Positions 2,077 through 48,690 of a stretch of DNA of 64,000 nucleotides are shown piece after piece. The position numbers and the translations under genes were made by a program. This stretch comes from Nemertoderma westbladi (taxonomy: Eukaryota > Animalia > Xenacoelomorpha), in the NCBI GenBank assembly GCA_032718475.1, contig JAUCBJ010007275.1, positions 1 through 64,000 on the forward strand. Reading direction: 5' to 3'. Numbering within the stretch: position 1 is the first letter of the stretch; each line of letters opens with the position of its first letter. Under the pieces are notes generated by a model, which did no database searches, had not been told where the DNA came from, and saw nothing but the letters and a program-made list of their open reading frames with translations.

Positions 2077-3012
2077 TCAAGGTAATTTATTCCAATCTAT
2101 TGGCAGCTTTCCTTGTTCTTTTAGAAGAGTATTGGCTTTAGAAAAGTGTTTACAACCGAAGAAGCCTTTACTAGCTGATAGTGGGGAAGGATGAGGTCCG
2201 CTGAGCACGTTATGACGTTTTCTGTCGACGGACACGGCCATCTTCTGCGCATAGGCGCCCCACAACAGGAAAACAACACCGTCGAGGTTTGCGTTGATCC
2301 AAGCGATTACAGCCGACGTTAATTTCTCCCAACCCTTCCCGGCGTGTGAATTGGGTTTGTGTTCAACTACGGAGAGGCAGGCGTTGAGTAGCAGAACGCC
2401 TTGGGAAGCCCACCCGGATAGATCGCCGTGTGTCGGCCGAGTAAACCCCGGGATGTCGGAGGTCAACTCCTTGAAGATGTTACCCAGACTCGGTGGGGGT
2501 TTAACACCCTTCCTCACGGAGAAACAAAGACCGTGGGCCTGTCCCGGGCCGTGGTACGGGTCTTGTCCAAGGATCACCACCTTCACCTCGGATATATCAG
2601 AGAATTGAGTCCACGAATAAACATCCAGTGGAGGTGGATATACCGTCTTAGTTTCTCGTTCTTTTGATACGAACTCAACCAGTCTGTTAAAATAATCCTT
2701 TGTAAATTCTTTCCCCAGGGCTTTCAACCAGGAAGGGCCAACGATTTTAGCTAGCTTAACATCGTCCTTTACGGGTTCAGCTATGGCAACTTCGATTTTA
2801 GATAATTTCGCAACTTTTTGATCTTTATCGTAAAATTCTAAAAGGCTCGACTGTTTTCTTTTCGCAGCAGCGCCGGATTCTATTTCTTTGGGTTTCTTTG
2901 AACCTTTTACTGCGCTTGATTTTGGAGCAACTACTTTAGTTTTTGGCGGCATTTTGCAAGATGCACGATAAATTAAAGATATAGGGCTGAAGTTAGCAAA
3001 TGTTTTCAACAT
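2077..3012 (-). CDS. UNG: Uracil-DNA glycosylase (family 1), intronless
   Basis: 311-aa ORF with GQDPYH, GLCFSV, PPPSL, GVLLLN and HPSPLS motifs. N-terminal basic region, PIP-box QSSLLEFY (2830-2853) and a second in-frame ATG at 2952. Confidence 0.97.
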   Translation of the reverse strand: MLKTFANFSPISLIYRASCKMPPKTKVVAPKSSAVKGSKKPKEIESGAAAKRKQSSLLEFYDKDQKVAKLSKIEVAIAEPVKDDVKLAKIVGPSWLKALGKEFTKDYFNRLVEFVSKERETKTVYPPPLDVYSWTQFSDISEVKVVILGQDPYHGPGQAHGLCFSVRKGVKPPPSLGNIFKELTSDIPGFTRPTHGDLSGWASQGVLLLNACLSVVEHKPNSHAGKGWEKLTSAVIAWINANLDGVVFLLWGAYAQKMAVSVDRKRHNVLSGPHPSPLSASKGFFGCKHFSKANTLLKEQGKLPIDWNKLP

Positions 3013-4536
3013 TAAACATAACTAATAGACAGTTTGCACGCACACACCTTACTGTAATCAGGCCTTCCGCCTATCGCACACTGTGTTGCATATTTTGGTT
3101 TGATAAATTAATTTATAGAACGAATGGTGTAGAGCAGTACCTATGTATAGTGAAGAGATAAGATTTGGACTATCTTTTCTGAACTGTTAATAATTAAAAC
3201 TAAAGACTATAATTGCACTAACAAGATCAGACAGAATCAGTATTAATATGATGGTTATACTGTATATGTTGCGGATAGTTCAACTTGTAAGAGAGGTTTA
3301 CTTCACCTTAGTAATTATAAAAGTTAAACTGTTTCACGAATATGTCAACTATATGTCCCACATCGTTCTGTCCAATAACTAATTATGCAATAATTATTTT
3401 TAATACTACACAGTATTAATGTGCATACTACAAGCAGAAAATATGCTTTAAAGTTAGATAGTGGCGCAAATTGACCGCAAGGGAAATATAAAGTTCCATT
3501 TATTGTTTTGGTTAGAAATCATGGCCACTTTAATCGCATCTTTCTTTTAATGTTTTAAATTAAATTTATTTTGTAAACCGACTAAACGCGGTGGTGTTAT
3601 ATAACACCGCCGCTATGTTGGAATAAAATATAATTTGCACGATTAACACCATAAAGTACTGTAGGGCCAGAGCATAGGCAAAAGGATACAATATGAGCGT
3701 AGCGAGTATTGAATTTTGCTTTATGTTAACTTGTTTATGTTTGTTAAAAAATTGTTGTTTAAAAGATCCAATTTTTTTTTAAATTGTCAAGGGGGGGGGG
3801 GGTGGCGCGATGGGCATGCCCCCAACCCAACATCCCCCCCCCCCCCCCCCCCCACCCCAATTTCGAGACAGGGGGGAAAACTCGACGCAAAACCCTTCTT
3901 GGCGAATTAATATCCCGCCTCTATGTTAAATTCTCAATTTAGGGAGAGGAGCAGGTAACAGTGGCACGTTATTTTAACCAAAACAATAAACTAAACACAA
4001 TAGGACAGCTTACAGTTTTATTTTTGAGAGTAATCAACTGTTATTTGCGTCCAATTTCCCCTGCCCCTTTCAAAATCCACCACTATTAGAGATACTGTAA
4101 TGTGTTCTGCTCAGTTGTCAGGTGTAGCTGTACTGTCAGACTGAAGGGTATGTTTCAAAATAAAAGTAAAAACTGCAGTGCCGGTATGTTCCTTCGTTGG
4201 TTCCTATGTAACAAGAACAACTACCCAGTTGGAAATACTGCATTACAGCATTACCTGGCTAGGTTCATTATTAAATTATGAACTGTGTAGCTGTGTGTTG
4301 GTGTACTGGTGTGTACTGCTGTACTGTGCAGCTGTGGTGTACTGGTGTATAGACTGTCAGACTTTAGTACTGACAGACTGAAATGACACTTCACTATACT
4401 GCACTACCGGTAGAGCACTACTGCTTGTACTTCACCGTGCAGTGCACCTAGCACAGTAGCAGGTAGGCCTATCTCATATATGGGTATATAACTGTATAAG
4501 GGTATTTAGGCATCGCCTACATTTTAACATGTCAGC

Positions 4537-6582
4537 ATGTTGTGCAAATGTTTGTATAATTTTAACGGAATAGAACCGCAGTGCCTCTCTGTGAAAAAAG
4601 GTGAAGAGTTATTGATTATAACTAAAACTAACTGCGATTGGTGGGAGGTTAGCAGCCTCAAAGGTAATCTCGGATTTGTTCCCCGATCATATCTTCAAGA
4701 AATAGCCTCAGACACTTCAGCAAGAAAAATACTCGAATTAGAAGCTATAGACCAAGCTATTAATCACTTAAATTCTACCTCAAAATTTGCCTCAATAGGC
4801 GTAAGTAAGAAGGTATTGAGTCGATCTTTGGGTAAATTAAATGGGCAGCGTGTGAAATTGTTATCATCTCGAACTTTCCCAGTTCCCGAGAATAAACCAA
4901 ATTCCAATCAAATCGCGAATGAATCACCAGCTGTTACTAACGCGGATGACGCCAGCGTCACTAGCAGATCCACATCCCTCAATTCTGGATCTGACGAATT
5001 GGGTGGGAAATACAATAAGAAACCCGCGCCTTTACCACCTTCCAGTCCTGCGGTCTGTAGGGCCGTTTCGGAATCACGTCGTTCGCGAAGTGTAGAAACT
5101 TTACTAAGCGATCGTCCAACTCCAACAAAGGTTCATCTCCCGCCGTTAGTCGGCAAACCTCCTTCTAACGCCAACCACAGGAACTCGTCGGCTAGCGATG
5201 AAACGAATCCCGAAGAGTTGACCCTCAACACGTTTATATTTGCGAGCGAAGTACATCGCGATCCCATCCCACCGGACAAATCAATGGATCCACGAACGAT
5301 CGATTCAGTTGATGGTAAACCGATAATCAATATCCCAGATGATATCGGCGCGTCTCTCGTCGAATTAGTCCGAAACGAAACGAAACTGAATTACAGTAAA
5401 TCCCAGATGGTCGTCAAGTCTATTCTGAACCGTATTCGTCGAGAAGTGAACCCGATCGCTTCCGTTCTCGACGACATTCTGTCTCAGATCGCCGCCTCCC
5501 ACAACAACAACTCGGAACAAAACTACACGACTAAAGACGAAGAAACCCTAATTTATTTATTCCACAAGATTAAACTAGTTTCCGAGGATTTTAACCAACT
5601 CGGTTGGTCTGTTTCTAACGATGAATTAGATATTCTCGACGTTTTAAACAGTCTCCATCAAGTTGTACGAGACGCGAACCCGGAAATGGTGAAACGATTG
5701 GTTCTCGAGGACAAACAGGAGCGAGTAACGCGTTTACTCGGCTACTTCCACGGCGAGCAGAGGGGGAAACTCTCAAACAAACTCATCGATATCTTTCTGA
5801 CGCTGGGCCGCGTCCATCCCTCGGTTATATCCAACATGGTAACGAGCGGGTTGGTTACAGTGGAGACAGTCCGTAGACTCACCGCTAACACACCCTATGA
5901 CGTCACACTGTGCGCCAGTCTACTAGCGATGCTTTTAGGTTCCGGTGAGAAATTCCTCGTTACAGATTTTGACCATTTCGACGTGAATCTCGTTGATTAT
6001 TCTTTGCAACTCCTCGAGGTGGAAGACAATAAAAGCAACGGCGACGAAGAGCTCATTGAGAATCTTATCAACTTTATAATCGCTCTGAATCTTCAGTTTG
6101 AGTTGCCGAGTTGCAACGTCGTTATGAACGCGTTCAGTAACGAACCCCGCTCGCTTTCCGCTGTCCACTGCTTCCATCAACGATTGTTTATGTTGTTCAA
6201 TCGGGGTACCGACCCCTTGGAGGCCGATCGGCCTCCGAGCACCGTGGCCGATCGGCCGCATTCCGTTATGAAGATGATGAACGATCTCTTTAGCAAGGCG
6301 GATACCTGCAATTTGTTCTACACTAACGATGTTAAAGTGGTTCTCGATGTTGCGATTCGCAATGTTGTTGATTGCGAGCCCAGCGACGCAATGCGAACGG
6401 AGAACTTGTCTTTGATTCATCTTATATTGAGGAATGCGGAATATTTCGAGCATTGCCATCGGCTGGATGAGTTGAAGGGATTAGTTAGAAGCATCGCTTT
6501 GGAAGATGATGAATCCCCACAAACATCTATGAATAAATACATCGTAAAAGAGATTAACAGAGAATTCCCACAGCATTTTTGA
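4537..6582 (+). CDS. NCKIPSD: NCK-interacting protein with SH3 domain (SPIN90/WISH/DIP family, Arp2/3 activator), intronless CDS
   Basis: 681 aa: N-terminal SH3 (LYNF...LSVKKGE...DWW...GFVPRSYL), Pro/Ser-rich linker (KKPAPLPP), and a C-terminal SPIN90/Ldb17-type domain with FYTNDVKVVLDV. Confidence 0.88.
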   Translation: MLCKCLYNFNGIEPQCLSVKKGEELLIITKTNCDWWEVSSLKGNLGFVPRSYLQEIASDTSARKILELEAIDQAINHLNSTSKFASIGVSKKVLSRSLGKLNGQRVKLLSSRTFPVPENKPNSNQIANESPAVTNADDASVTSRSTSLNSGSDELGGKYNKKPAPLPPSSPAVCRAVSESRRSRSVETLLSDRPTPTKVHLPPLVGKPPSNANHRNSSASDETNPEELTLNTFIFASEVHRDPIPPDKSMDPRTIDSVDGKPIINIPDDIGASLVELVRNETKLNYSKSQMVVKSILNRIRREVNPIASVLDDILSQIAASHNNNSEQNYTTKDEETLIYLFHKIKLVSEDFNQLGWSVSNDELDILDVLNSLHQVVRDANPEMVKRLVLEDKQERVTRLLGYFHGEQRGKLSNKLIDIFLTLGRVHPSVISNMVTSGLVTVETVRRLTANTPYDVTLCASLLAMLLGSGEKFLVTDFDHFDVNLVDYSLQLLEVEDNKSNGDEELIENLINFIIALNLQFELPSCNVVMNAFSNEPRSLSAVHCFHQRLFMLFNRGTDPLEADRPPSTVADRPHSVMKMMNDLFSKADTCNLFYTNDVKVVLDVAIRNVVDCEPSDAMRTENLSLIHLILRNAEYFEHCHRLDELKGLVRSIALEDDESPQTSMNKYIVKEINREFPQHF

Positions 6583-15263: not shown

Positions 15264-16646
15264 GGAATCAGCGCCGAAAATTAGCCTATAGGTATCGATA
15301 CCGCAAGAGAAGATCATTTTTTAAAAATTTAAAAAATTTCACTTTTGGTGCATGTTTGGTCAGTTGTAATCAGGAGGAAATTTAAAACACGTTTTTCTCG
15401 GTTTATCGTTTTCTTCCTGCTGTAATTTTTAACTGATTTGAATTATGTTTGCGTTTTTTCGAAGCTCTTGGTGTCGCCAACAAACGATAGGCCTACTACC
15501 AGATTCATTTTTTTTTTAATTATATCAAAAGTTACAGCATTTAAAATATCAAAATATGCCAAAAATTCTAGTATTTTCAAAATTCGGGTATTTTTAGGAT
15601 ATTTTGATATTTTAATTGCTGAACTTTGATATAATAAAAAAAAAAAAATCTGGTAGTACAGTACAGGCCACCAGAAAAAGCAGATTTCATCCAATGTGAT
15701 CACATGTGAACACATTTGTTCAAGTCATCTGATTGACAGGTTATGGCGAGTTATCTTCTAGATCACACAGCAAGAGGCAAACTTGCCGGGACCGACAAAG
15801 GCTGATGTCTGTATGTCTGATATCAGGTATATGAGAGAGCCCCCAGGGCGTAACATTGCGGACATGGGCTGTATTGGTAGAGAGAGAACTACATACAAGA
15901 CCACATGGAGGTTAATGGAGTGGATGGGTATAACCTATGGATGGAGGAGCCTAGACCATTGAATAATTAATGTAGTGCAGGGAGATGTCGCGCCATTATT
16001 AGTCTGACACCGAGAGGGCACAGAGAAACACCAGAAGATGCCTTAATATCACTAACTATAGGCCTGCCTACTAGACACTATTAACCGCACACTATAAAGG
16101 TAAACAAAATCCTTATCGCATTTCCAGCTGCAGTGAGTGACAGTTCGCGGCAAACTACAGAGTGTTTCCAGATTACTAAGCGTTTCAAAAGTATTCAATT
16201 GTATCCTTTGGCGAAAAAATTTTGGTTGTTGCCAATTCAATTATGTTCAATTATGTTCAATTGTCCCGTTCAACAACATTACATTACACTGGTACACATT
16301 TGATAAAATGCGTTCACAATTGTACAAATCTGCGATTCCACCTTGTGTTTCTCCCCGCAGAAGAGACATATAGGGGAGGTCTGGTGGCCTGTACTGTATC
16401 TTAGGTTGGCGATACCAAGAGCTTCGAAAAAACGCAAACAGAATTAAAATCACGTAAAAATTACAAAACTACTGTAGTAGGGAATTATGGGAAAAAAATT
16501 ATAAACCGAGAAAAACGTGTTTTAAATTTCCTCCTGATTACAACTGACCAAACATGCACCAAAAGTGAAATTTTAAAATTCTCTAAAATTCTAAAGATCT
16601 TCTTTTCCGGTTTTTGATACCTAGGCTAATTTTCGGCGCTGATTCC
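15264..16646. mobile_element. Foldback/MITE-like element with long inverted arms, containing a nested MITE
   Basis: About 15264-15405 is inverted at about 16503-16646 (e.g. TTTGGTCAGTTGTAATCAGGAGGAAATTTAAAACACG / CGTGTTTTAAATTTCCTCCTGATTACAACTGACCAAA). Outer limits are uncertain. Confidence 0.65.
15659..16396. mobile_element. Tc1/mariner(pogo)-type MITE, copy 1
   Basis: TIR CAGTACAGGCCACCAGA...TCTGGTGGCCTGTACTG, flanked by TA on both sides; near-identical inverted copy at 47896-48645. Confidence 0.85.
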
Positions 16647-18171: not shown

Positions 18172-18729
18172 TATTAAGGCAACAATAAAAAGCGCAAATA
18201 ACTTAAACTTCATGGTTTGAGAAATAAAGATTCTAAAATAACAGCTGACGTTTCGATTTATTTAACAATAATAATTTTCAAAGCAAAAATAAATACCTGA
18301 AAATTAGTGAAAGACAGTACTAAATACAAAATACAATAATAAGGCTGGTGAAGATTGCAATAACAATACAAAAAAAACTATTTCCCAAATAATGGGTGTT
18401 GTGGCTAGTGTGCACAAAAAGCCTTCCATATTCAATTACAACCTTTTTGTGCACACTAGCCACAACACCCATTATTTGGTAAATTATTGTTTTTTTGTAT
18501 TGTTATTGCAATCTTCACCAGCCTTATTATTGTATTTTGTATTTAGTACTGTCTTTCACTAATTTTCAGGTATTTATTTGTTTTTGCTTTGAAAATTATT
18601 ATTGTTAAATAAATCGAAACGTCAGCTGTTTTTTTAGAATCTTTATTTCTCAAACCATGAAGTTTAAGTTATTTGCGCTTTTTATTGTTGCCTTAATAAG
18701 CTTCAGATTACCAGCAACTCAAACTCTAT
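18172..18729. mobile_element. Palindromic Penelope-like (PLE) pseudo-LTR insertion with a hammerhead-like motif
   Basis: About 250-bp near-perfect inverted arms (18172-18420 / 18444-18698) plus a ~30-bp tail. CGATTACATATA on both sides (18162, 18730). GCT-TTGAAAA-stem-CGAAACGTC-AGC motif at 18586-18626. Confidence 0.6.
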
Positions 18730-22515: not shown

Positions 22516-22984
22516 ACCAGGATAGAATAGATTTTGTAAATGTGTCAGTACAAACTCATGTATTGTTGGAATGTCCCTTGACAGTAGAAAATATTATAAT
22601 ATAGACTGATATTTATGAAATATAAACCAGAAATTTATTGAGTTTACGATTACAAATATATTAAGTGAACTAGAGCTGTTGTAATTATATTCAGTACGTA
22701 GTAGCGAATTATTCGTATTTTGTGGACCGGATGTGTTATATTGTCATATCATATATTAATGGTAATTTTTTGTCGCATTCAGTCAATAAATATATTAGAG
22801 TTGAAACAGAGACTTGTCACTGATCTCTGATCTCTGGATTCTCCGGGCTATTTTTTGGTCTCCGGATAGGTCTCTGGTTCCCGGGTATTTAAAACAGACA
22901 TTTTACCCAGAGATCAGTGATTTTACAAATTAGAAATAGATATTTAAAAATAGATCCTGTACAACACGAAATGTGAAATGAGGA

Positions 22985-23537
22985 TGTTAGCTTATCCAAT
23001 TCCGCTAACACAAACCCATAGAGTGAGCCATAAAGCAATATTGGGAGCACGAGGTTGATTACCAATCAACCTCGTGTCAGCCCAGTAAACGGGGACAATA
23101 GGCCCCAAAGGAGACACACACAATAAGGGTCAGGGGTTACTCCCCTGACAAGAGAGAGAACAGCAAGGGCGAAGGGAAGCACTTCAGAGGGGGGCAAAGG
23201 GTGCCAACAGGGGTATCAACCAATCAGAGGGGGGAAAGGCATCGATTGAGTAGCAATAAGGCCACCACCGTGCAATATAACCAGTTACCAGTAATCATAC
23301 CGGTCAGTTATTCAGTTTACTCAGTCGGATCAGTAGGGTGGAACGGGGACTTCTGTCACCGTCCGCTACCGCCATTATATATTACCTATTGTGTCATACT
23401 ATATTATATCAACTGTCAGACTATTATACCCTTATACATATTACCCAACATCAGAACTCTTTTACCTTTCACACACGGCGGGGACGCGTGGGCAGAAAAC
23501 CCAAACGGATAAACCGGGATCCGTAGATCCCGTCACA
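22985..23537 (+). repeat. 5' LTR (553 bp)
   Basis: TGTTAGC...GTCACA; appears identical to 30234-30786 (the ORF track gives identical peptides in both). Confidence 0.96.
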
Positions 23538-23673
23538 GTGACAGAACTAGATCCGCCCAGCAGCCCAGCTACCTGACAGAGATAGAATCCTAGCAGCTGC
23601 CCTAACAGTCTGACAGTGATAGAACTAGATCTAACCAACTGACAGACTGTGGCTGCCAGCTACCAAAGGCGAG

Positions 23674-25548
23674 ATGAGTCGAGAGAAAGGAACGACACCG
23701 CCGCGGACCCCGGACGACGATCTAACGATCCGCGAGGCCACGGCGAGACGATACGAACCCACGACGCCGATCGATGCTACGCCGACCACGTCGACGCAGG
23801 TTGACGCCACGTCGACAACGAGCAACCCGGCGAACCAAGATGTGGGGGGTCGTCTACAACCGGAGAGTGAGTCGAGGGAAGGAGACGAGAAGGGAGAAGA
23901 GAAAGACGAGTCGACGCGGAGCGAGGGTCGACATACCGATGTCACCGGCCAGCCACAGGCCGAGGACGACGAACGGTCCACCGGAACGGCGACGGTGGGG
24001 CCGTCGGTACGACGTCGGACCCGGAGAGATGGAAGAGAGGTCGGCGACGAGGACGTCGGGGTTTCTGATCGACTTCGACGGGCCTACCTCGCGACCCGGG
24101 AGCAACTGAGAGAGGCCAAAGGAGGGGCGAAGATAGACGAGGTGAGACTGAGGAGACGACTAGGTGAGTCGAACAGATACTTTGATCACCTAGTGCGTTC
24201 TGGGCAGGGAGAACTGGCCAGGGAGAGAGCGAGAGGGGTTGCCTTCGAACTGTTTTGGCTATGGCAACGTATGGGTATGGGGCTTGGTGTAGTGTACATA
24301 GGGCCATACTTAGTCGATGCCAGGGAATTTAGGTTAGTGGGTTGGAAGAGACCTGGGGAGGGCGAATCCGAGGTTAACTCCGAGGATTCGGTCTCGTCGG
24401 TCGGAGGAAGTTCCGGGAAGCGGGGGAAAGTTAGTAGGACGGAGGGGCGACGGGAGTCCGTCGCAACCGATAAGTCTGCTACATCCTCCGCAAAAGAAAG
24501 AAGGGTGCGAGAGAGTGAACGCGTGGCGTATAAATTAGAAAAGGCGGCGGCAGAGCGGAAACAGTTAGAGGGGCAATTGAGAGAGCAAACCGCATTATTA
24601 GAGTTGGTAAGGGAGGATAGAGAGAGGGCCGAGGAGCGTAGAGAGCGGGAGCATATCGCGATAATAACCGGGAGAATAGAGAGCGAGCCGGCAAAGCGGT
24701 CTGAGATGCTTGCGAGAGAGAGGGCCGAGCGAAGTTTACGAAAGTGCATAAAGAAAGAGATAGAGATAGAGCGTGAGCGGGATGATTTGTGTGCCCAGAT
24801 AGGGAGGCTTGCGCAATATCAAGCCAAACTTAAACGGCGCCGACTAGAACTGGCGCGGTTGGAAATGTCAGAGAGTGAGACCCCACTTACAGGCACCGGG
24901 CGAGAGAACCAGAACTGGTGTAGCCGTACGGGCGGGGGGGGTAGTAGTAGTACGTTAGAGACAGTTAATGTTAATAGTACCGTAGTAAATAACCCTAATC
25001 CCTTTATTACAGGAAATATTTTACCCGGTAGTAGTAATTTAAGTTTAAATTCAAATAATAATATTAATTCAAATATTCAGAATAATCAAAATAATTCAAA
25101 TAATTCGAATAGCAATTTAAATTTTGAAAATAATAACAACTCTAATTTAAATAATTTAAATAATAATCTCGTTTCAAATTCTAATAATTTAATTGATTTA
25201 ACAAATAATAATGGGAATGGTGCTATTAATATGAGCGTGTCGGACGTACATAACCCAGCAGACGGGGGCCTGGTAGGCCACGTACTTGGTAGGCAGGAGG
25301 TGGCAGGGTTGAGCCAACCCGACGGCGGCCTGGTAGGCCACGTAGTTAGTAGGCAGGAGGTAGCGGGGTTGAGCCAACCCGAAGTGGGCCTGATGGGCCA
25401 CGCAGTAGTAGAGAGAGAGGCGGGGGTGAATAGACCCAGCCGTAGTAGAGACAGTGCGTCGACTAGAGAGGGGTGTAGAGACGAAGTGAGAGATAATGAA
25501 GTTAGATGTGGCGGAGTGGGGGGGGGCTACGGGCGCCCCACCACATAA
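23674..25548 (+). CDS. Gag-like protein, N-terminal part (charged coiled coil, Asn-rich tract, internal repeats)
   Basis: 624-aa ATG ORF just downstream of the 5' LTR; it ends shortly after a poly-G run and probably continues into the next ORF. Confidence 0.7.
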   Translation: MSREKGTTPPRTPDDDLTIREATARRYEPTTPIDATPTTSTQVDATSTTSNPANQDVGGRLQPESESREGDEKGEEKDESTRSEGRHTDVTGQPQAEDDERSTGTATVGPSVRRRTRRDGREVGDEDVGVSDRLRRAYLATREQLREAKGGAKIDEVRLRRRLGESNRYFDHLVRSGQGELARERARGVAFELFWLWQRMGMGLGVVYIGPYLVDAREFRLVGWKRPGEGESEVNSEDSVSSVGGSSGKRGKVSRTEGRRESVATDKSATSSAKERRVRESERVAYKLEKAAAERKQLEGQLREQTALLELVREDRERAEERREREHIAIITGRIESEPAKRSEMLARERAERSLRKCIKKEIEIERERDDLCAQIGRLAQYQAKLKRRRLELARLEMSESETPLTGTGRENQNWCSRTGGGGSSSTLETVNVNSTVVNNPNPFITGNILPGSSNLSLNSNNNINSNIQNNQNNSNNSNSNLNFENNNNSNLNNLNNNLVSNSNNLIDLTNNNGNGAINMSVSDVHNPADGGLVGHVLGRQEVAGLSQPDGGLVGHVVSRQEVAGLSQPEVGLMGHAVVEREAGVNRPSRSRDSASTREGCRDEVRDNEVRCGGVGGGYGRPTT

Positions 25549-25636
25549 GATTAGTGGCGAGAGAGGGGGGGGCAGAGAATGCCCCACAAGAGGGGTGTAG
25601 AAGTGTAGTAAGAGGTAGTGAAGTTAGAAGTGGCGG

Positions 25637-27403
25637 GTGGGGGGGGGGGCTACGGGCACCCCACCGCGAGAGATTAGTAGAGAGAGAGGGGGGGCAGAGA
25701 GTGTCCCACAGCCGTCAGCGGATAATGCGAGGGCCGAGCTAGGTAAACCGCAACACCCGGCGACGGAGAGTAATAGGGGGATTGCGAGTATCCCCAGCGG
25801 CGTGCGATCGAGCAGAGAGAAGCAGGTTGACGTCGCGAGAGGGCAGGCGAAGCGTCGAGCCCGACCAGAAGAGAGAAGAAGAACAGTGGAGTTTAACCGG
25901 GAGGTCGACGAGAGATCTCACGAGCCGGAATACTACACAGAAAAGAGAAGAAGAGAAGATAGTAGAAGAAGTGTCGCCACGAACGATAGGAGTGCGAGGA
26001 CGGATAACGGACCGTCGATAGTAGAGATGGAGTCAGGGAGCCAGTGGGGTCGAACTTCGGGAGATTGCCGTCGCCCCGGAGAAACGCACCGCACGCCAGG
26101 AGAGGGGTACAGGACGTACAAATACGAAGACGAGAGCAGGATAGGGGATCGAAGGGAAACTTCCCGACGTGATATAGCTGCCGATCGAGAGTACGGTAGT
26201 CGCGGGGAGATTCGAGATTCGCGAAGAATAAACTTCGGTTCGGAAGGGCACATGCAGACTGCAGGACATACTGTAGGCCTTACTGCACATACTATTATAG
26301 GCCATGCTGGGAGAGATAGAGTATGCGATAGGGTAGCGCGAACGACGGGATTAAACCCGGAAGTCGCGGAGTACATACCGGTAGGTAGGCGAGAGGTAGG
26401 TAGGCCTATATCGGTACAGCAGCATGACTATAATACACAGGGACATAACATATATCCAGGGGAGGGGGGAGTTATTGGAGATAGACGTATGGGCCCCAAT
26501 GTATTAACATCAACCCCAGTACCAAACATACCGGCTGGGGGGGGACAGGGTGACATTCCCCCATCACAATATCGACAATGTACCCCGATAGGAGCAAGAA
26601 CATCGAACTCCCCGGACGAGAACAGGTCGTGCGGACAGTCACCACCACACGCGGCCATACAGGGGACTGCTAGTCCACAATTAGTTGGTAGCAGGACCAC
26701 ACCGTGGCAGGGACAGAAAGAAAATAACACCGTAAATAAACACAATCCCAATATACCCAGTAGGCCGAGTCTAGACAACCAAAACATTAAATCGGTACAT
26801 ATAAACCTAAGCGCGATACGTGAAGGACTATACAGGAAACGCTATAATCCAGGATTCCAATGTCAATTACATCGGGACGGAACCCATAAGACCAGGAGTT
26901 GCAAGTACTGGCAATCGTTGCCCAAACGAGATCGTGTAGCCTACACAGACGCAAACGGACTATGTCATCGATGTGTGGTAAAAGGACACAGATCCGGAGA
27001 GTGTTGGAAAGAGAGAGGATATGAAAGGACTAAACCAGGGGCAGAGAAGCCCATTAGCAAACATAAGGGAGTCGGGAAAGTAGAAGGAGGCGTGTTGCAT
27101 ACACACGCACGGCTGACACAGTGCGAGGGGGCATTGCACGGGCAGACACCGCGTATACCGAGGGACGAGCGGGGGTCGTCGAGGGCCTTAATGCCAGCGC
27201 ACATACGAAGGGGGAGGCCAGCAAAGGTGGCACCGAAGAGAGTGTGGCGAAGAGTTAGAGGACGTATAGGAGGGCAGCAGGAGAGTGCCTACCGGAAGAA
27301 GGGGCACGTGAGAGTTTTTAGTCGTCCAAAGTTTTGGACTGAGGGGGGTGGGAATGAGGGCGAGACGCCCTTCCCACGCACGAAATATAAAATAATTATT
27401 TAA
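25637..27403 (+). CDS. Gag-like protein, C-terminal part with BEL-type zinc knuckles
   Basis: CQLH-x4-H-x4-C...DR...LCHRC-x4-H-x4-C has the same architecture as the BEL gag at about 55968-56110; basic C-terminus. Confidence 0.75.
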   Translation: MGGGATGTPPREISRERGGAESVPQPSADNARAELGKPQHPATESNRGIASIPSGVRSSREKQVDVARGQAKRRARPEERRRTVEFNREVDERSHEPEYYTEKRRREDSRRSVATNDRSARTDNGPSIVEMESGSQWGRTSGDCRRPGETHRTPGEGYRTYKYEDESRIGDRRETSRRDIAADREYGSRGEIRDSRRINFGSEGHMQTAGHTVGLTAHTIIGHAGRDRVCDRVARTTGLNPEVAEYIPVGRREVGRPISVQQHDYNTQGHNIYPGEGGVIGDRRMGPNVLTSTPVPNIPAGGGQGDIPPSQYRQCTPIGARTSNSPDENRSCGQSPPHAAIQGTASPQLVGSRTTPWQGQKENNTVNKHNPNIPSRPSLDNQNIKSVHINLSAIREGLYRKRYNPGFQCQLHRDGTHKTRSCKYWQSLPKRDRVAYTDANGLCHRCVVKGHRSGECWKERGYERTKPGAEKPISKHKGVGKVEGGVLHTHARLTQCEGALHGQTPRIPRDERGSSRALMPAHIRRGRPAKVAPKRVWRRVRGRIGGQQESAYRKKGHVRVFSRPKFWTEGGGNEGETPFPRTKYKIII

Positions 27404-27439
27404 TTAAATAAAATAATTAAATAATAAAGTAGGTAGAAG

Positions 27440-28200
27440 TTAGGTAGTTAGGAGTTATTTAGGAGGTACGTAGTACCTAGGGTCAGAGTTAGTTAGTTAG
27501 TCAGTTAGCACTGATAGTTAGTGTTAGAGTAAGAGTTAGAGAGTCTCTCTACCGTTAGAGAGTAGGAGTTAAGGGGTACGTAGTACCGTTAGAGAGTTAG
27601 TAAGAGTTAGTAGGTACGTAGTACCTAGTTAGAGAGTCAGTAGGTACGTAGTACCTAGTTAGAGTTAGAGTTAGTAGGTACGTAGTACCGTTAGAGAGTT
27701 GGTAGGTACGTAGTACCTAGTTAGAGTTAGAGTTAGTAGGTACGTAGTACCTAGTTAGAGTTAGAGTTAGTAGGTACGTAGTACCTAGAGTTAGTTAGAG
27801 AGTCAGTAGGTACGTAGTACCTAGTTAGAGTTAGAGGGTACGTAGTACCTAGTTAGAGAGTTAGTAGGTACGTAGTACCTAGTTAGAGTTAGAGTTAGAG
27901 GGTACGTAGTACCTAGTTAGAGAGTTAGTAGGTACGTAGTACCTAGTTAGAGTTAGAGTTAGAAGGTACGTAGTACCTAGTTAGAGTTAGAGGGTACGTA
28001 GTACCGTTAGTTAGAGTTAGAGTTAGAGGGTACGTAAGTACCGCTAGTTAGTTAGAGTTAGAGGGTACGTAAGTACCGGTTAGAGAGTAAGAGTTAGAGG
28101 GTACGTAGTACCGTCAGTTAGTGGAGTTGGAGTAGTGAGAGGGTACGTAGTACCGCTAGTTAGAGTAAGAGTTAGAGGGTACGTAGTACCGTTAGTAGAG
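27440..28200 (+). repeat. Array of about 20 GGTAC-GTA-GTACC stem-loops in (GTTAGA)-like C-poor linkers
   Basis: Core GGTACGTAGTACC (often TAGGTACGTAGTACCTA) repeats mostly every ~28-42 bp. Confidence 0.9.
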
Positions 28201-28220
28201 AGTTAGCAGAGTAGAGTTAG

Positions 28221-28787
28221 TTTTTTTTCCTACACATCGTACGTTTATTTATATTTTCATATCAATAATACTGCTCTGCACATTGGACATAAGATAGATA
28301 AATTTACTAGGCCATCGAATTGTGTAGTACCCTCCACCAATAAAAAAAAGTAAGCCAGTCCCACATTCCCCTACGCCCGCACCTCCAGACCTTCGGCTAC
28401 CGCGCAGAGGATACCGGTTTCCCTCAGCGATTGTGTGGACCGCCGGGTCTTTGGTGTGCGGGCGCCCCTCAGACACATTAGAGCGGACCGCAGCAGGGCA
28501 AAGTTTAACTTCGTCCGCACGAGAGACACGGTCTGCGAATAGGGAGAATCCCGCTTGACTGAGAGGAGGAGCGATATTCGATTTATGAGCGCATGCGCGC
28601 TTCTGCTAGCGCCCCCTGTGGTAGCCATGATGAACGGGCAGAAACCTCCATGCTCGATCTCATTTATCCTCTCCTCGTATTTTCGTCGTTTCTCCCTCTC
28701 GTGCTTCTGATACGCGGACGAAATGGAACGGGGGTTAGAGGAGCACAGCGGGTTGAATATCTTTACGTCCACGTATACTTTCTTACT
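28221..28787 (-). mobile_element. 5'-truncated CRE-like (RLE endonuclease) non-LTR retrotransposon copy, antisense inside the LTR element
   Basis: Peptide VYVDVKIFNP...HEREKRRKY...EHGGFCPFIMATTGG...LNFALLRSALMCLRG matches the RLE C-terminus of CRE-like elements. 3' UTR with AATAAA (28244-28249), A8 tail (28221-28228), possible TSD TAGAGTTAG. Confidence 0.8.
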
Positions 28788-28804
28788 TAGAGTTAGTAGT
28801 AGAA

Positions 28805-29570
28805 TGGTTGTGGGCACCGTAAGCGCCACATAGAAAGTAGTAGCAGTAGAGGGTTGTGGGCACCGTAAGCGCCACGTAGTTAGAGTTAGTAGGGAATGCG
28901 CTGAACTTAGTGGGGCACGGGCGTGATGATGTGTGTGATGTAAGAGCAGGGTATGTTAATTAGAGTTAGTGGGAGTTAGAGGTTAGTAAGAGGGTACGTA
29001 GTAGTACCGGTTGTGGTTGTGGGCACCGTTAGCGCCACGTAGATAGAGGTAGAGTTAGTAAGAGGGTACGTAGTACCGGTTGTGGTTGTGGGCACCGTTA
29101 GCGCCACGTAGAGAGTTAGTAGAGTTAGAAGGTGCCGTGCACAAGAGGTGCCGGGCACAAAAAGAGTTAGTAGAGTTAGAAGAGAGTTAGTAGAGTTAGT
29201 AGAGTCAGTAGTAGTTCACATAATTAACGTACCCACTCTGCCGGCACTCAGAGCGTCACGTGTAGGCGATGAGACGTAAAGGGGGTGTAGAAGAGTAGAG
29301 ACGGGCACATAGGGTGCCAGGTAGTAGAGTTAGAGAGGTAGTAGAAGAGTAGAGAGGGCACATAGGGTGCCAGGTAGTAAAGTAGAGTAGAGGTAGCAGA
29401 GAGGGCACATAGGGTGCCAGAGAGTAGAATAGTAGAGACGGGCACATAGGGTGCCAGGTAGTAGAGTTAGAGTGTTAGAGGTAGTAGAGAGGGCACATAG
29501 GGTGCCAAGTAGTAGGGTTAGAGTGTTAGAGAGGTAGTTGAGTAGTAGAAGGGCACAAAGGGTGCCAGAT
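28805..29570 (+). repeat. Two further stem-loop families: GTGGGCACCGTWAGCGCCAC (x4) and GGCAC-ATAGG-GTGCC (x6)
   Basis: Family B at about 28810, 28856, 29019, 29088; family C at about 29303, 29356, 29403, 29440, 29491, 29550; linkers almost entirely A/G/T. Confidence 0.85.
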
Positions 29571-30233
29571 AGTAGAGTGGTTAGAAGAGTGGAGTAGAGT
29601 TAGTAGAGCTAGTTAGTAGAGTTAGCAGAGCTAGTGGAGTAGAGTTAGTAGAGCTAGTTAGCAGAGTTGGTAGACTCAGAGGAGTCAAGTAGAGTTAGTA
29701 GAAGTAGAAAGTTAGTAGAGAGTTAGAGTCAGTAGAAAGTTAGAGGCTCTCAGTTAGAGCTAGAAGTAGTAAGAGTTAGTAGTTAGCAGAGTTAGTTAGA
29801 TAGTTAGAGTTAGTAAGCAGTAGGTAGATAGTATGATAGCACAGGGGTAGCATTAGAGATTAAAGCCTTAGGGAGTGACAAGAGAGTGGAGAGAGTAATA
29901 GTGCGGAGTGCGAAGAGAGCGTGGGCGCAATTCAAGTGTGGGGGAGGAGAAGTGAGAGGAAGAGTGTGGGACGAGGAGGTCCGGGGGTATGCGAGAGTTG
30001 GAGTAGAATGGTGAGAGTGTTGGGGAAACAAAAATTGTGTGAGAGAAGCGCACGATCGGCCCGACACGAGACGCCAGAGGGTAGTGACATCATACCCATA
30101 GGGAGCGGCCTGGAAAGCCGACTCCGAAAAAATATACCCACCCCACACCCGATGCTAGATCGGGATCCAGCGGAATTGTAGCGCACTTGAGTTGGATGCT
30201 ATCTTCTTACCGGGAAGATAGCATGGGGGGGAG

Positions 30234-30786
30234 TGTTAGCTTATCCAATTCCGCTAACACAAACCCATAGAGTGAGCCATAAAGCAATATTGGGAGCACG
30301 AGGTTGATTACCAATCAACCTCGTGTCAGCCCAGTAAACGGGGACAATAGGCCCCAAAGGAGACACACACAATAAGGGTCAGGGGTTACTCCCCTGACAA
30401 GAGAGAGAACAGCAAGGGCGAAGGGAAGCACTTCAGAGGGGGGCAAAGGGTGCCAACAGGGGTATCAACCAATCAGAGGGGGGAAAGGCATCGATTGAGT
30501 AGCAATAAGGCCACCACCGTGCAATATAACCAGTTACCAGTAATCATACCGGTCAGTTATTCAGTTTACTCAGTCGGATCAGTAGGGTGGAACGGGGACT
30601 TCTGTCACCGTCCGCTACCGCCATTATATATTACCTATTGTGTCATACTATATTATATCAACTGTCAGACTATTATACCCTTATACATATTACCCAACAT
30701 CAGAACTCTTTTACCTTTCACACACGGCGGGGACGCGTGGGCAGAAAACCCAAACGGATAAACCGGGATCCGTAGATCCCGTCACA
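30234..30786 (+). repeat. 3' LTR (553 bp)
   Basis: Direct repeat of 22985-23537, preceded by the polypurine tract and followed by TSD GAGGA. Confidence 0.96.
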
Positions 30787-31414
30787 GAGGATAATTTTTC
30801 ACAAATTTTTTACAATTAATAATTTCTTTAATTTTTAAATATTTTTAATACTCCGCTTCAACAAAATTATATATTCACTTTTACACTACTTTTAATCTAA
30901 CTCTAAATCTGACTCAAACTAAATGTACCGATAATCTTCTATTTAATTAATTTAAGGTGCGTTTAATTTTAAGTTAAATTAGCACCTAAAGAGGGTTCTT
31001 ATTTAAGGATAAGGGCGCTTAATTTTAGCACTCATAATGTTTAAAAGTGAAAGAAAGGGCTGTTCTCCATTCAATTTGTTGTAGGATAGATGATATGACA
31101 ACCAAATGAAGAGAACGAGCGTAACGAGGCTTGTATATGGGGCGAGTACAGTACCATACCTGTGCACTGTATTCGTAATTTACTAAGTTTATTTTATACT
31201 GTAGTACATTGAATGAAATGTATATGATTTGAACAATTGTAAAATAAGTGCCTTTAATTAACAAAGTACAAGTATCTATGGCGCAAAACAAAATTATGTT
31301 AACATATTATACTAACAATAACAAAATAAGAACGAATTAATAAACAAATAACCAAATTAATATTAATTAAGTCCCCCAAACTGTTACCTGTGCTTATTTT
31401 CTTCCAATGGGTAA

Positions 31415-32804: not shown

Positions 32805-35800
32805 TTAAGGAAGGAATTCCTTTATGTATTTAACAGTTAGTTCAACATGCCAAGTATCAAACCAGACTTTACTGATCACACCAACTACTGCTTGACAAGC
32901 GTGTTTGGAAGAAGCCTTTAGCAGCCAGGAGGAGCCATCTTCAAACGACAAATTAAGGAATACATCAAGTGAGCATTTAACCTCTGCAATAAGTTGAGTA
33001 ATATTCTGCTGGAAACAACCCGGTTCTAAAACTTCGGAGAATTGTTGGTCTTGTAATTCGTCCGTGGGCGGACTCAGGTTGTTGGGTAGTGGCCACTGAA
33101 ACGATTGCCGTACCAAACATAGTTGATGCGGCGTCACAACCAGGGTCAAGGGGACTAGACAACCATCTCGCTGGAAGAATACCAGAAACCTGTTGAGAAC
33201 AACTTTACCGAGCCCTGTAAATATCGTCTGCAGACGAGTCAGTTCGAGATTGGAAGAGTCGGGCTCAAAACTGGTAAGTTTTGCGATATTAATAACTTTT
33301 GACATGTAGTTTTTGAACGTAAGACAAACACTGCTGTCTCGAAACAGAAACGAATACGACAACGCTTTGAAGTTACGAGTGCCCAATTTCGAAGAGCATT
33401 CGATGCGAACTGACTGGTAATCAGCGTCCACGAGGAATCGGCTGACCTCCGGTGGTTGGAAGCTATCCAACTGCACCAGGAAGCGAGACACATCGGAGCT
33501 GCGCGCCGCTACATCGCAGCGCAACTCGAACAAGTGGAATCGCGAGCTGGGTTGCACCGTAGTCGTAGATCCAGAGTGCACGAACAAACAGTCGAACTCC
33601 ACTGTCCTCATATACTTGACGGCGTCGACCCTGAGTACGCAAGGAATATTGTTATCGTCCCTGTCCCCGAGGACGAGACTGAGGAACAACTGGATCCTGT
33701 GGTCCAGGTCGTCGTATTTGTTGAAACCCCGCACGGGAAGGTCTACGAGAGGTCTGGTCGGCAGGTCGGTTGTTGATTGGCTGGAATAACTCGCGTCAAA
33801 TCCGGACATATCACGAGAAGAAACTGATTGATTCGGACCTTTAGTCGTTATCATCGCACCGACGTCACACGAATTCGGTTTAGCTACATCAAAATTTGCT
33901 ATTAATGGTTTATTTATTAGTCCTAAATCATTATTAGGGCAGTATTTGCTAAGGTCGACACCACGAGGTAAGGTTTGGGGTCTGTCAGTGGCGAACTTCT
34001 GTGGTGTCGAGGTGGAATTTGGTAGAAAATTTGTCGGTGCATCCGAAAATGATTCATCATTCGGACCAGAAATCAAATTCTTTACTTTATCTTTAATTAC
34101 AGCTAAACTGCTTCGCATGCTGCCCAGACTACTCTTCCTGCTGTGTCTACTACTGCTGCTCCCAGTGTTACTAGTTGTGTCGTCAAAGTCACGGACGGAA
34201 TCGCTGGGTTTATTCGCCGTTAACTCAACAACCATATGCGATTCGCATTTAGGACAACACAGACTCAGAGTCGAGCTCTCCGTTGCATCTTTATTAAAAG
34301 GATTCTTAAAATATCTTTCTATAAGTTTCCCTTCGCTTTTAAGGAAAGTAACATTGGAACATTTTAAACACTTATATGTATCTTCCTGCAGTGGAATATT
34401 TGGCCGAATTCGACGGCTTATTAGATCAAGGAATTCAGCCTTTCTGTCATTTTCAATAATCTGATAGACACGATATTCTTTCGTCCTATTATAATAGGAA
34501 AATTTCAAACGAAAAACGCCAATTTTGTTTTCAATGATCTCCAATAACGAATCCAAAGCGAAGTTCTCCAGATGGCGACCGCAGTAATCCACTTCGATTA
34601 TGGAATCATCAGTGACCTTGAGGATGACCTCGTCATCTTCAGAGCCGCGTCGCACGATGAACGGATTGGCGATGAGCGAAGGAGAAACCGGTTCCGGGAT
34701 GGCAGCATATTCAGGCGTCGGGGAATTTTCAATTTGGAAATCGACGGGAGAAGTACGATTGCTAGGTTCACGATCCGAAGGATAAAGGATACCATTATTA
34801 GCCTCTTTACTAGCAACATCCTCATCAAATTCAGTTTTGACACGCTCATAAGTGACATTATCAGCTTTATCGTTATCTTCCACAGGAACTGTTTGTGGTT
34901 CATCGGCAAATTCATTGTTAGTGTCAGCATTTACAGAAGTTGGGCTAACTCTTGCGGATTCAACATAGTCTACAGTGGAGGCGTCCACAGGGACATAGCC
35001 TAGAGTGGATACCGAGGTCGCTGCAGTGGATGGTAGAACATCCGGGCCGTAATTAATCCCCAACAAGTACAGAGGACCCATCTGCTTTCTCTGCATCTCG
35101 TAAGGAAATCCCTCGCTCTTAGTGGGGTCAACATCCTCTGCTGTTGTGTCGCATTCAGAAGTTGTTGGGGCGTCGGAAACAGCCGTCAAGAGTTCGGTGC
35201 TGCCACCACTGCGATTCTGAATGACAGGCATTCTGTGTTTCTTTCTACGTCGTTTTACATTGGGGCTTTGGATAATATCAGGGACGTTAGTCGCTCCTAT
35301 TGCAGGGATACCTTCTGGGAGGGGGCGGAGTGACATTGTCACTGACGATTCCCCATACCTCTCTCTGGGTACAAGACTCCTAGTTCCAAACGAGAGTTTC
35401 TCTTTGCTGGAAAACTGAGTTGCATCCAATGTAACTGTATCAACATTGATTCTCGGATTTAACGCAGAGCAAACCAAAAGTCGATAGTTGGGACTACAAG
35501 AGAGAGGTGTCCCCTTGAAGTTAATAGTTTGGATATGGACTAACATACATAAATCAACGATTCCTTTAAACCCAAGAATAAGATTGAATGACATGCTCAG
35601 CATTTGGAGGTTACATAAACAATCCAAATTAGTCAACGTAGAAATATGGTTGAAATCGACGACAAGGTGAGTAATCTGAGAAGGTAATTGCGGAAGGATT
35701 TCGAGGTGGTTGTAACTCAAGTTGAGGGATCGCAATTGGTTCAAATTGCGAATAGAATCTGTTAGACTGTCAGTTCTTAATAAGTTATAGGAGAGATCAA

Positions 35801-36362
35801 GATGGGTTAGTTTGGGAGTCAAAAGAAGTGAAGAATCTAGCTGGTCGAATCTGTTATGACTGAGATGTAGTTCGGTTAACTGGTCCCAATTAGCGGGTGG
35901 GGCGCGATCACCACCACACTCACTGAGTAACTCGTAAGTGCTGTGAAGCATCCGGTAACAATCCAAATACTTCAACCGCGAGCGAAGTTGGGTTAAACCA
36001 GCCACCAAGTTAATAGGTATTTTATTCAGAATTAGGCAGGTTAGGTTGGGTAAATGATGTAGCCGGATTGGAGCTTGTATGGTGCTAGTGTGATGAACGA
36101 GTGACAAACTATCGCATTGAACAAAAGCTGAATGAAGACTGGATAAATGCCGTCTGTAGGCATCATCGTGAACACGGTGGTGGACAGCGCCAGAGTTTAA
36201 GGCATCAAAAGCTTCTCCAATAAACACCAATAACGAGGCTGAAATGTCTAAGTTATGGGGGTTTCCCCTTTTTTCAATTAGAATTGTCAACCATTCTACA
36301 TACTTGAGCGTGCTAACAGCAGCAACATCAAATTTAAACGGATAGCGATCCAGGGACGACAT
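32805..36362 (-). CDS. STK11IP: Serine/threonine kinase 11-interacting protein (LIP1), intronless; likely ATG at 36362 (1185 aa)
   Basis: N-terminal LRRs (LTELHLSHNRF, LTHLDLSYN, LRSLNLSYNHL), low-complexity middle, CxxC...CPKC zinc ribbon, conserved DHRIQLFL motif and PH-like C-terminal region. Confidence 0.85.
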   Translation of the reverse strand: MSSLDRYPFKFDVAAVSTLKYVEWLTILIEKRGNPHNLDISASLLVFIGEAFDALNSGAVHHRVHDDAYRRHLSSLHSAFVQCDSLSLVHHTSTIQAPIRLHHLPNLTCLILNKIPINLVAGLTQLRSRLKYLDCYRMLHSTYELLSECGGDRAPPANWDQLTELHLSHNRFDQLDSSLLLTPKLTHLDLSYNLLRTDSLTDSIRNLNQLRSLNLSYNHLEILPQLPSQITHLVVDFNHISTLTNLDCLCNLQMLSMSFNLILGFKGIVDLCMLVHIQTINFKGTPLSCSPNYRLLVCSALNPRINVDTVTLDATQFSSKEKLSFGTRSLVPRERYGESSVTMSLRPLPEGIPAIGATNVPDIIQSPNVKRRRKKHRMPVIQNRSGGSTELLTAVSDAPTTSECDTTAEDVDPTKSEGFPYEMQRKQMGPLYLLGINYGPDVLPSTAATSVSTLGYVPVDASTVDYVESARVSPTSVNADTNNEFADEPQTVPVEDNDKADNVTYERVKTEFDEDVASKEANNGILYPSDREPSNRTSPVDFQIENSPTPEYAAIPEPVSPSLIANPFIVRRGSEDDEVILKVTDDSIIEVDYCGRHLENFALDSLLEIIENKIGVFRLKFSYYNRTKEYRVYQIIENDRKAEFLDLISRRIRPNIPLQEDTYKCLKCSNVTFLKSEGKLIERYFKNPFNKDATESSTLSLCCPKCESHMVVELTANKPSDSVRDFDDTTSNTGSSSSRHSRKSSLGSMRSSLAVIKDKVKNLISGPNDESFSDAPTNFLPNSTSTPQKFATDRPQTLPRGVDLSKYCPNNDLGLINKPLIANFDVAKPNSCDVGAMITTKGPNQSVSSRDMSGFDASYSSQSTTDLPTRPLVDLPVRGFNKYDDLDHRIQLFLSLVLGDRDDNNIPCVLRVDAVKYMRTVEFDCLFVHSGSTTTVQPSSRFHLFELRCDVAARSSDVSRFLVQLDSFQPPEVSRFLVDADYQSVRIECSSKLGTRNFKALSYSFLFRDSSVCLTFKNYMSKVINIAKLTSFEPDSSNLELTRLQTIFTGLGKVVLNRFLVFFQRDGCLVPLTLVVTPHQLCLVRQSFQWPLPNNLSPPTDELQDQQFSEVLEPGCFQQNITQLIAEVKCSLDVFLNLSFEDGSSWLLKASSKHACQAVVGVISKVWFDTWHVELTVKYIKEFLP

Positions 36363-37455
36363 AATAATATATAAATAAACAAAATAATCAGTGAATTCAG
36401 AATTAGTACCGTATAGCAAATTGGTCAAAAGAGACCTGAGAATGACACATGTTTAATGTTTATAACATAATATTGGTAGGTCACTTAGTCACTTAAGTAA
36501 CATAGGGTTAAATTGCACACATTCATACTACACTACAGTACTACCTAGGCGTAATCGTAAAGACTGATAAAATATTTACTGTCGATATCTGTATATTCCA
36601 AAATGTTACTATTATTACTTAGCCTTGCCTATATATATCATTTACTTACTCCTCGTTGTTTATAGCTCGTTAGGCCCTATTTTATTACTTTATTAGCTGA
36701 ACCGGTAGGCCTACTCCCAATACTGCAATAAATCGACTCCCAGATTTACCGATTTACCTTTCCAAACAAATTACGTTCTCATTTAAAAATCCAAATGAAA
36801 CTATTTATTCTTAAATTGTTACTTTTTCGCTATAATATCAAATACACCTCAAAATCGGGAGAAAAGTGAGTACTTTTTTTCCCTCGGCAAACAAGTAACC
36901 CATACGATTGCATTGATCTTACTTTTTCTCCCGGCGAAAAAAGTAAAATAGGAAAATATTAAAGATTTCTGGTTTGAATTTCTTAAATTTTATTATTTAG
37001 GGCCTAGGCCCCCTATGTGTTGGAAGAGCATCGTCATAGAAAAGGTTTGCGACTTTAGCGTCTGACTGCAAGGGGAACTCCAAAACAGTTAAATAGGCTC
37101 TCTACTCTACTCTCTAGTAAGTAGCCTAATAAATATTCAAGAAAAATAATTTTTTTAAATCTGAGTCAGGCAGCATCAGGCTGTCAGGCTCAGGAGTTGA
37201 AGAGTACAATCATTGGAATCGCAGTAACTATGGAAGCAATATTTGAATAGGTCTATAGGCTATAGCAGTATAGTAAAATAGTGCAGTTCAATCTTTTTGC
37301 AACACACTTTCATTATATCTTGTATTAAAGAATTATAACAGTCGGGGAGAAGTTCAAATTTCAACTGAGTTGAAATTTAAAACTTTTTTTTTTAAATTCA
37401 ACTTTAAGTTGAAAATTCAACTCTAAAATGGTAGGAGGCCCAGAAGGCCCCTAAG

Positions 37456-46723: not shown

Positions 46724-47254
46724 CAGTATAATAATTGTAGGTCTAACGTCTGAACGTACCGTACAGCACTTTAACTTGGATTTATTGCAGTATTGCATTA
46801 GGCCTTATTGCTTATGGCCTCTTACTTATTCTGATATGGCAGTGATTTTTTTTGTCCTTTTATTTGACTTTTTTTGTGCATAATGAATGTGCATAACGAA
46901 TTGTGCATAATGACTTTTGTTGTCCCTTTAATGACTTTTGTTGTCCTTTTAATGACTTTTTATGTATGTATTTCTTAAAACTGTCAGACTGCTGATTTCT
47001 GGACTGTCAGACAGTTGATTTCAACATGCGTATGCCACAACATTCAAAATTTGCTGATTTCTGGTCTGTCGGACAGTTGGTTTCACTATGCCTGTGCCAA
47101 AACAATCCATGATTCCATGATTCATAGTCTATGAGATAGATTTCCATATGCGCCTGTGGTAAAAGACTCTAAAATTTAATAGTTTGTGGTTGTTGTCGAT
47201 AATCGATTACCACATGATGTAGCAAAACACTCATTTTATAGCCAAAAACAATTA

Positions 47255-47781
47255 CCAATTGATGGAAAGGAGCAGGTTAAGGCCGGATTTTTTTAACCAA
47301 AACAATAAACAGTCACTTTACCAAATGAAGGAAAGGAGCAGGTTACAGAGGCGGGCCTTTCTAACCAAAACAATAAACGATCATTTAACTAATTGAGGGA
47401 AACGAGCAGGTTACAGAGGCGGGATTTTCTAACCAAAACAATAAACAGTCACTTTACCAAATCAGGGAAAGGAGCAGGTTACAGAGACGGGATTTTCTAT
47501 CCAAAACAATAAACGATAACATTACCAATTGAGAGAAAGGAGCAGGTTACAGAGGCGGGATTTCCTAACCAAAACAATAAACGATCACTTAACTAATTGA
47601 GGGAAAGGGGTAGGTTACAGAGGCGGGATTTTCTAACCAAAACAATAAACAGTCACTTTACAAAATGAAAGAAATGAGCAGGTTACAGAGGCGGGCCTTT
47701 CTAACCAAAACAATAAACGGTCACTTTACCATATCAGGGAAAGGAGCAGGTTAGAGAGGCGGGATTTTCTAACCAAAACAA
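47255..47781. repeat. 68-bp minisatellite, about 8 copies
   Basis: AAAACAATAAAC recurs at about 47300, 47367, 47435, 47503, 47571, 47639 and 47707. Confidence 0.92.
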
Positions 47782-47895
47782 CCGGTCAGCCGGTAGGCCT
47801 ACCAGTACCGCATTTAAATGGTTGGCTACACAGTAGGCCTACAGCAGTACCGGTGCCGGTACCGGTACTAAAATACCTAAAATACCTGCTTTATA

Positions 47896-48645: not shown

Positions 48646-48690
48646 TACCTACATCTGTACATGCAATACTGCAAAATAGTGCTCTATATA

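Follow-up and report, generated by a model that had tools for sequence, protein, structure and literature searches.

Here we describe a 7.8-kb retroelement at 22985-30786 of the window, by which we mean the whole 64-kb stretch of Nemertoderma westbladi DNA that was analysed. All of the element's features lie on the forward strand. It is bounded by two 553-bp LTRs (22985-23537 and 30234-30786), which are 100% identical and have TG...CA ends; a 5-bp target site duplication, GAGGA (22980-22984 and 30787-30791), flanks both LTRs, and a polypurine tract (PPT; 30225-30233) adjoins the 3' LTR. ORF1 (23635-25548) spans 637 aa from stop to stop, with its first ATG at 23674, and is followed in another frame by the 591-aa ORF2 (25628-27403) and by a long non-coding internal region with a short-unit tandem repeat (27559-28205). 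ORF1 belongs to no Pfam family and found no relative among 1.84 billion protein representatives. Its part at 23934-24060, which is common to many divergent contigs in the host sequencing runs, reads as a lineage-specific Gag-like N-terminal domain.

The affiliation of the element comes from ORF2, which carries two of the three BEL-type Gag Cys-His zinc knuckles at about 26858-27013. Of 120 BEL proteins, 82 supplied Gag knuckles for a knuckle profile; against it ORF2 scored an E value of 4e-8, and only the window's own coding BEL scored better; a homologue search with segment 380-500 of ORF2 retrieved no relatives and only zinc-knuckle leads, all under 0.9. The LTRs, PPT and short target site duplication are likewise features of BEL/Pao elements. 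Between the LTRs no ORF has the size of pol and Pfam shows no pol domain, so that the PR-RT-RH-IN of BEL/Pao is missing and by its pol feature the element is a non-autonomous derivative and not a full member of the superfamily. Because it has no RT, its kinship to the BEL families surveyed below rests on one knuckle. Compared with the Belpaoviridae as defined by the ICTV, it agrees in its TG...CA LTRs within the 0.2-1.2 kb range, its 7.8-kb length, its PPT and its BEL-type Gag knuckles, and differs in having neither an 18-nt tRNA primer binding site (PBS) nor pol. Contigs cover its LTR at a depth that exceeds the depth of single pieces by a factor of thousands, which, although depth is not copy number, indicates that the family is very abundant. 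By its sequence features, then, the element is young, non-autonomous and BEL-type; the BEL/Pao label given in the original prediction gains support from the Gag knuckle, whereas its non-autonomous state is not mentioned there.

The window also contains a coding BEL/Pao element (52743-60834) with three ORFs and the domains DUF1759, Peptidase_A17, Integrase_H2C2 and DUF5641. It has no clear PBS and no second LTR copy within the window, and on the latter ground it is probably 5'-truncated or interrupted. Downstream of it, 62476-63270 holds a 264-aa ORF without Pfam match. Elsewhere in the window, three host genes, each a single uninterrupted ORF, which is unusual for animal genes, encode a UDG-family glycosylase (2077-3021), an SH3/SPIN90-like protein (4528-6582), for which a homology search gave no match at 1e-20, and an STK11-interacting-protein-like protein (32805-36452). 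A long satellite array with a 22-bp unit runs from about 7655, with more than 140 overlapping copies listed. Inverted-repeat elements (MITE or foldback-like) and a 68-bp tandem repeat occupy 15319-16588, 18172-18698, 47216-47849 and 47913-48648, and 15656-16337 recurs in inverted orientation at 47913-48648.

Attention had been drawn to the 5' LTR of the non-autonomous element by the claim that no TGG-type PBS follows it and that the first 9 nt of the internal region are instead complementary to the LTR itself. Both observations were borne out. Past the LTR, TGG does not occur before 23650, 112 nt beyond its end, and there is no 18-nt PBS for tRNA-Arg or tRNA-Gly. Directly after the CA of the 5' LTR stands a non-tRNA PBS, GTGACAGAA (23538-23546), which is exactly complementary, in antiparallel orientation, to 23351-23359; the complementarity goes no further than 9 nt and is oriented so that synthesis from the LTR segment's 3' end would run into U5. 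This is the priming geometry of Tf1-type elements. The LTR segment, our predicted self-primer, ends in AC, with a predicted cut between 23359 and 23360, lies 178 nt from the LTR end and occurs within the window only in the two LTR copies (23351-23359 and 30600-30608). Dinucleotide shuffling of the LTR gave the 9-mer 14 times in 20000; among the 3862 internal positions of the element, 7 match the LTR over at least 9 nt; and when the PBS of unrelated BEL elements was set against foreign LTRs at offsets of 0-4, 9 nt were reached in 2/110 or 1/110 pairs in two runs. Taken alone, the 9-nt match is thus a 0.1-2% event by chance, which is suggestive and no more. In the leader (23538-23680) the PBS region also recurs once, in degenerate form, at 23616. 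A scan with ARAGORN detected no tRNA in the 64-kb window or in the 80 BEL loci of the survey.

The original prediction placed the match in a multi-helix junction. The helices that it named exist: the 5' arm at 23360-23373, which would stack on the primer helix, pairs over a long range with the 3' arm at 23477-23486, a hairpin with a 7-bp stem forms in U5 (23515-23532), and the whole junction is the minimum free energy (MFE) structure for an RNA of 23351-23570. For the primer helix, however, the pair probability is about 0.4 in that RNA, about 0.1 or less in RNAs beginning at 23290-23326, and about 0 in an RNA extended to 23700; if the RNA begins upstream, the self-primed fold is 3.6-5.6 kcal/mol less stable than the MFE. 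The U5 hairpin was robust in all folded constructs. Between the 3' arm and the hairpin lies a variable linker (23488-23514), in which 23488-23497 resembles the PBS in this copy and could pair with the primer segment as a decoy (−9.1 against −12.3 kcal/mol); the decoy pairing appears in an MFE structure. Beyond the PBS, 23547-23561 could pair with 23506-23510, a U5-leader helix like that of the Tf1 pretzel, possible in this element though short at 5 bp and with a pseudoknot that lies outside the scoring, or with 23336-23342 as an extension of the primer duplex; neither pairing was shown to be above chance. The extended duplex (23336-42/23552-58, −26 kcal/mol) was rejected as evidence, its strength being due to G-rich composition (p 0.6 vs shuffles), and for the extension in all 15 elements combined p was 0.08 vs shuffles. 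Rfam gave only three sub-threshold miRNA-like hairpin matches on the leader, where the hairpin at 23595-23660 carries sub-threshold matches to miRNA families.

The position of the transcription start matters for these folds, and the caveat attached to the original prediction, that the start may lie upstream of 23351, stands. The predicted start region (23276-23334) contains TATAA at 23276 and TCAGT at 23304, 23312, 23321 and 23330, which we take to be initiator-like motifs and which would put the start 17-45 nt upstream of the primer segment. Neither AATAAA nor ATTAAA occurs in the LTR.

Variation among copies was assessed from 862 contig placements on 23290-23600, from four runs and at most three samples. 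The 23 listed substitutions comprise 6 in 23412-23451, 16 in 23490-23514 and 1 at 23562. None is listed for the primer, for either arm of the long-range helix, for the stem of the U5 hairpin or for the PBS, although the table is incomplete (it omits a variant at 23327 seen in another listing) and so does not amount to proven invariance; the linker varies and the loop letters of the U5 hairpin differ among copies. Likewise, 10 of the 12 indels shown, out of 42 indel rows, lie in 23490-23503. Two contigs of about 87% identity match the element through 23546 and then depart, one of them rejoining near the start of gag (joint 23546-23687); that these divergent contigs keep the match to exactly 23546 marks the 9 nt as a kept unit. 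Of the pieces that end within 23537-23546, 9 of the 17 listed break off at 23539, one contig of this kind resuming at 23692, so that sister subfamilies may carry a different PBS after GT.

The evidence for self-priming is comparative. A search with an alignment headed by the window's coding BEL yielded 535 BEL loci in metagenomes, of which the survey used the best 80; no BEL loci were found in viral contigs. Ten distinct families had an LTR end fixed by the divergence of the 5' and 3' copies, a count that sets aside L052, L054 and L066 as near-copies of L058 and L065 and leaves out 8 loci without fixed ends, scanned separately, and the remaining 59 loci. In eight of the ten (L002, L021, L022, L034, L036, L049, L058 and L065) a stretch of 10-15 nt in the PBS, which lies 0-4 nt past the LTR, complements the joint that would result from removal of a predicted GT-AG intron from the LTR of the same element; the donors are canonical, of the GTAAG or GTACG type, and the acceptors pyrimidine-rich. 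L047 has a contiguous 11-nt PBS match in its own LTR, and L017 has a TGG-type, tRNA-type PBS. Self-complementarity was therefore found in 9/10 families, each with a different PBS, and the same fraction lacks a tRNA PBS; this is the pattern that the original prediction had proposed to look for in related families, complementarity kept while the letters change. Among control cross-pairs, 5/110 reached 10 nt when any GT-AG was allowed and 1/110 with strict splice sites, the strict donor list having been chosen after the data had been seen; none of 66 shifted windows exceeded 7 nt. Among the 8 loci without fixed ends, a junction match of 10-11 nt at a plausible LTR end was obtained for 5 and not for the other 3. 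The LTRs of L001, L007, L020, L026 and L027 too contain a canonical GT-AG intron whose predicted joint is complementary to the PBS over a length in this range (10-15 nt).

Several particulars connect the window element to these families. Predicted primers end in AC in 11/14 cases, as in the window element, and a PBS that starts with GT directly after the LTR also occurs in two fixed-end and two inferred families. The distance from primer to LTR end is 71-216 nt in nine relatives, a range that includes the 178 nt of the window element. Its 9-nt primer is shorter than that of any relative (10-15 nt), and its primer helix has a probability of 0.40, where the helices of the relatives in short constructs have mean probabilities of 0.06-0.99, 6/9 of them above 0.9. 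The window element is not itself of the splice-joint type: its LTR has the complement in one piece, and the two letters ahead of it are AC where an acceptor would have AG. For this element, a primer assembled by splicing or from a spliced leader was rejected, since no AG acceptor lies within the 9-mer or immediately ahead of it and the best junction reached 5 nt, and 0 with strict sites. In a FastTree phylogeny of 77 RT-RH sequences (4 loci dropped as short), rooted by midpoint only and hence read without any order of events, self-complementary elements occur on either side of the root, and L017, with its tRNA-type PBS, branches from among them. In the surveyed set we also observed a BEL element (L029/L030) that is repeated in perfect tandem every 6138 bp, the copies sharing LTRs.

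To establish a context for these results, a brief account of self-priming is required. To our knowledge, its experimental demonstration is confined to Tf1-type gypsy elements. In the accessible parts of the reports on Tf1, the RNA's initial 11 bases anneal to the PBS and cleavage by RNase H falls between the 11th and the 12th (PMC7175516), with priming taking place inside a three-duplex 'pretzel' (PMC10085805). The accessible text of further papers describes self-priming for the Tf1/sushi group and predicts it for the plant Tcn1 and TAR lineages (PMC4600332, PMC6317226, PMC6934838, PMC5341516); for Tcn1 (gypsy) and TAR/Houba/Osr-1 (copia) the prediction was made from PBS-LTR complementarity alone (PMC6317226, in its accessible part). 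BEL/Pao elements, described from metazoans only according to the accessible part of PMC3601003, are held by the ICTV to be primed by tRNA-Arg or tRNA-Gly through an 18-nt PBS, in a profile that calls their replication poorly understood (PMC8742986). The terms PBS, tRNA and self-priming are all absent from PMC3118150. The original prediction knew of no demonstration of self-priming in BEL/Pao, and our literature search, which had Repbase/GyDB and subscription papers outside its scope, agrees with it in finding no report of self-priming or of LTR-intron-built primers in this superfamily.

Judged against the accessible descriptions of the Tf1 group (Tf1/Tf2 of S. pombe, Tj1, Tosmo and the Tf1/sushi chromoviruses), the window element is alike in that the PBS after its 5' LTR complements the LTR in priming orientation, and in that flanking duplexes including a U5 stem are possible (PMC7175516, PMC10085805, PMC4600332). 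Unlike that group it has a BEL-type Gag and neither chromodomain nor pol, which places it outside Ty3/gypsy. Its primer is 9 nt long and probably internal to the RNA, in contrast to the 11 nt at the very start of the Tf1 RNA, and since the element is non-autonomous, cleavage would have to occur in trans. Most of the BEL relatives differ further from Tf1, as the accessible texts describe it, in needing a predicted splice joint. The plant elements Tcn1 and TAR/Houba/Osr-1 belong to other superfamilies, and the accessible part of PMC6317226 makes no mention of an intron-built primer.

We consider it likely, from the sequence features set out above, that this young and abundant non-autonomous BEL/Pao-type element primes its minus-strand DNA with a piece of its own RNA and not with a tRNA. 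Transcription would start at about 23306-23332, after which 23351-23359 would pair with 23538-23546, the junction being stabilised by the U5 hairpin and the 23360-73/23477-86 helix. Cleavage behind the AC at 23359, probably in trans by the RNase H of a helper BEL, would yield the 3'-OH from which RT would copy 23537 back to 23360 before jumping to the 3' copy of R; this jump requires a poly(A) site downstream of 23360. In most relatives the same primer would form only once the LTR intron has been spliced. The junction-type relatives would keep that intron only if the 3' LTR copy stays unspliced, and splicing of the 3' copy would produce an intron-less LTR with a contiguous primer, as in the window element and L047. 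Since its AC primer end and its spacing agree with those of most relatives, the window element likely belongs to a Tf1-like system of self-priming, probably as the intron-less form of one whose primer would mostly be built by splicing.

Three other explanations have to be weighed. The match could have arisen by chance, or the helix could serve packaging, dimerisation or translation control while something else acts as primer. Self-complementarity in a fixed register, with differing letters, in nine of ten relatives, the AC end common to their primers and the lack of any other primer site in view after the LTR make this unlikely, even though foreign pairs reach 9 nt in 1-2/110 cases, many elements were scanned, and the primer helix is marginal and has competitors. 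The element could also prime itself from its other end, the 9-mer in the 3' R (30600-30608) becoming the 3' end of the RNA through cleavage or polyadenylation. This would suit the presence of the 9-mer in both LTRs, yet we find it quite improbable: the nearest poly(A)-like hexamer, AATAAG at 23255, is some 100 nt upstream of where the primer ends, AATAAA or ATTAAA stands downstream of the primer in six junction-type relatives, and the primer of these relatives should come from the 5' end, because their intron would persist only with an unspliced 3' copy.

The remaining explanation, which we think very improbable, is a half-tRNA primer as in some Ty1/copia lineages, here a half of tRNA-Asp(GUC). 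The first 7 of the 9 PBS bases would complement its anticodon loop; with the common tRNA-Asp stems this fit would end at 7 nt. Moreover, the PBS is different in every relative, and in some contigs of the element's own family the match breaks off immediately after GT. In 120 viral loci with the 9-mer in a tRNA-like pattern ARAGORN identified 3 tRNAs, none of them tRNA-Asp, a weak point given that these loci are not host DNA. Half-tRNA priming as such is described for plant copia lineages (accessible part of PMC6317226).

We therefore return to self-priming by the 5' copy of the segment. The complementarity is real and most likely functional, and it most likely represents a known mechanism in a superfamily where it had not been described, with the splice-built form in the relatives being the unusual part. 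The comparative data support the self-priming reading of the original prediction, which had missed that the primer of most relatives appears to lie across a splice joint. A broader reading that joins the two, to which we would give about even chances, is that much of BEL/Pao has exchanged the tRNA for a self-primer released by a cut after a conserved AC, that in most families the spliceosome makes this primer from two exons in the LTR and so couples reverse transcription to splicing, and that the abundant family in the window has lost the intron and is served in trans by a helper's RNase H.

The prediction is exact to the base, with the cut falling at 23359/23360. If it is true, self-priming arose one further time, probably independently, and is common among the genomes of animals. 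It would also account for the BEL elements that lack a PBS and would provide a rule for delimiting BEL LTRs. Furthermore, if the relatives do build their primer by splicing, this would constitute a new link between host splicing and the replication of retroelements.
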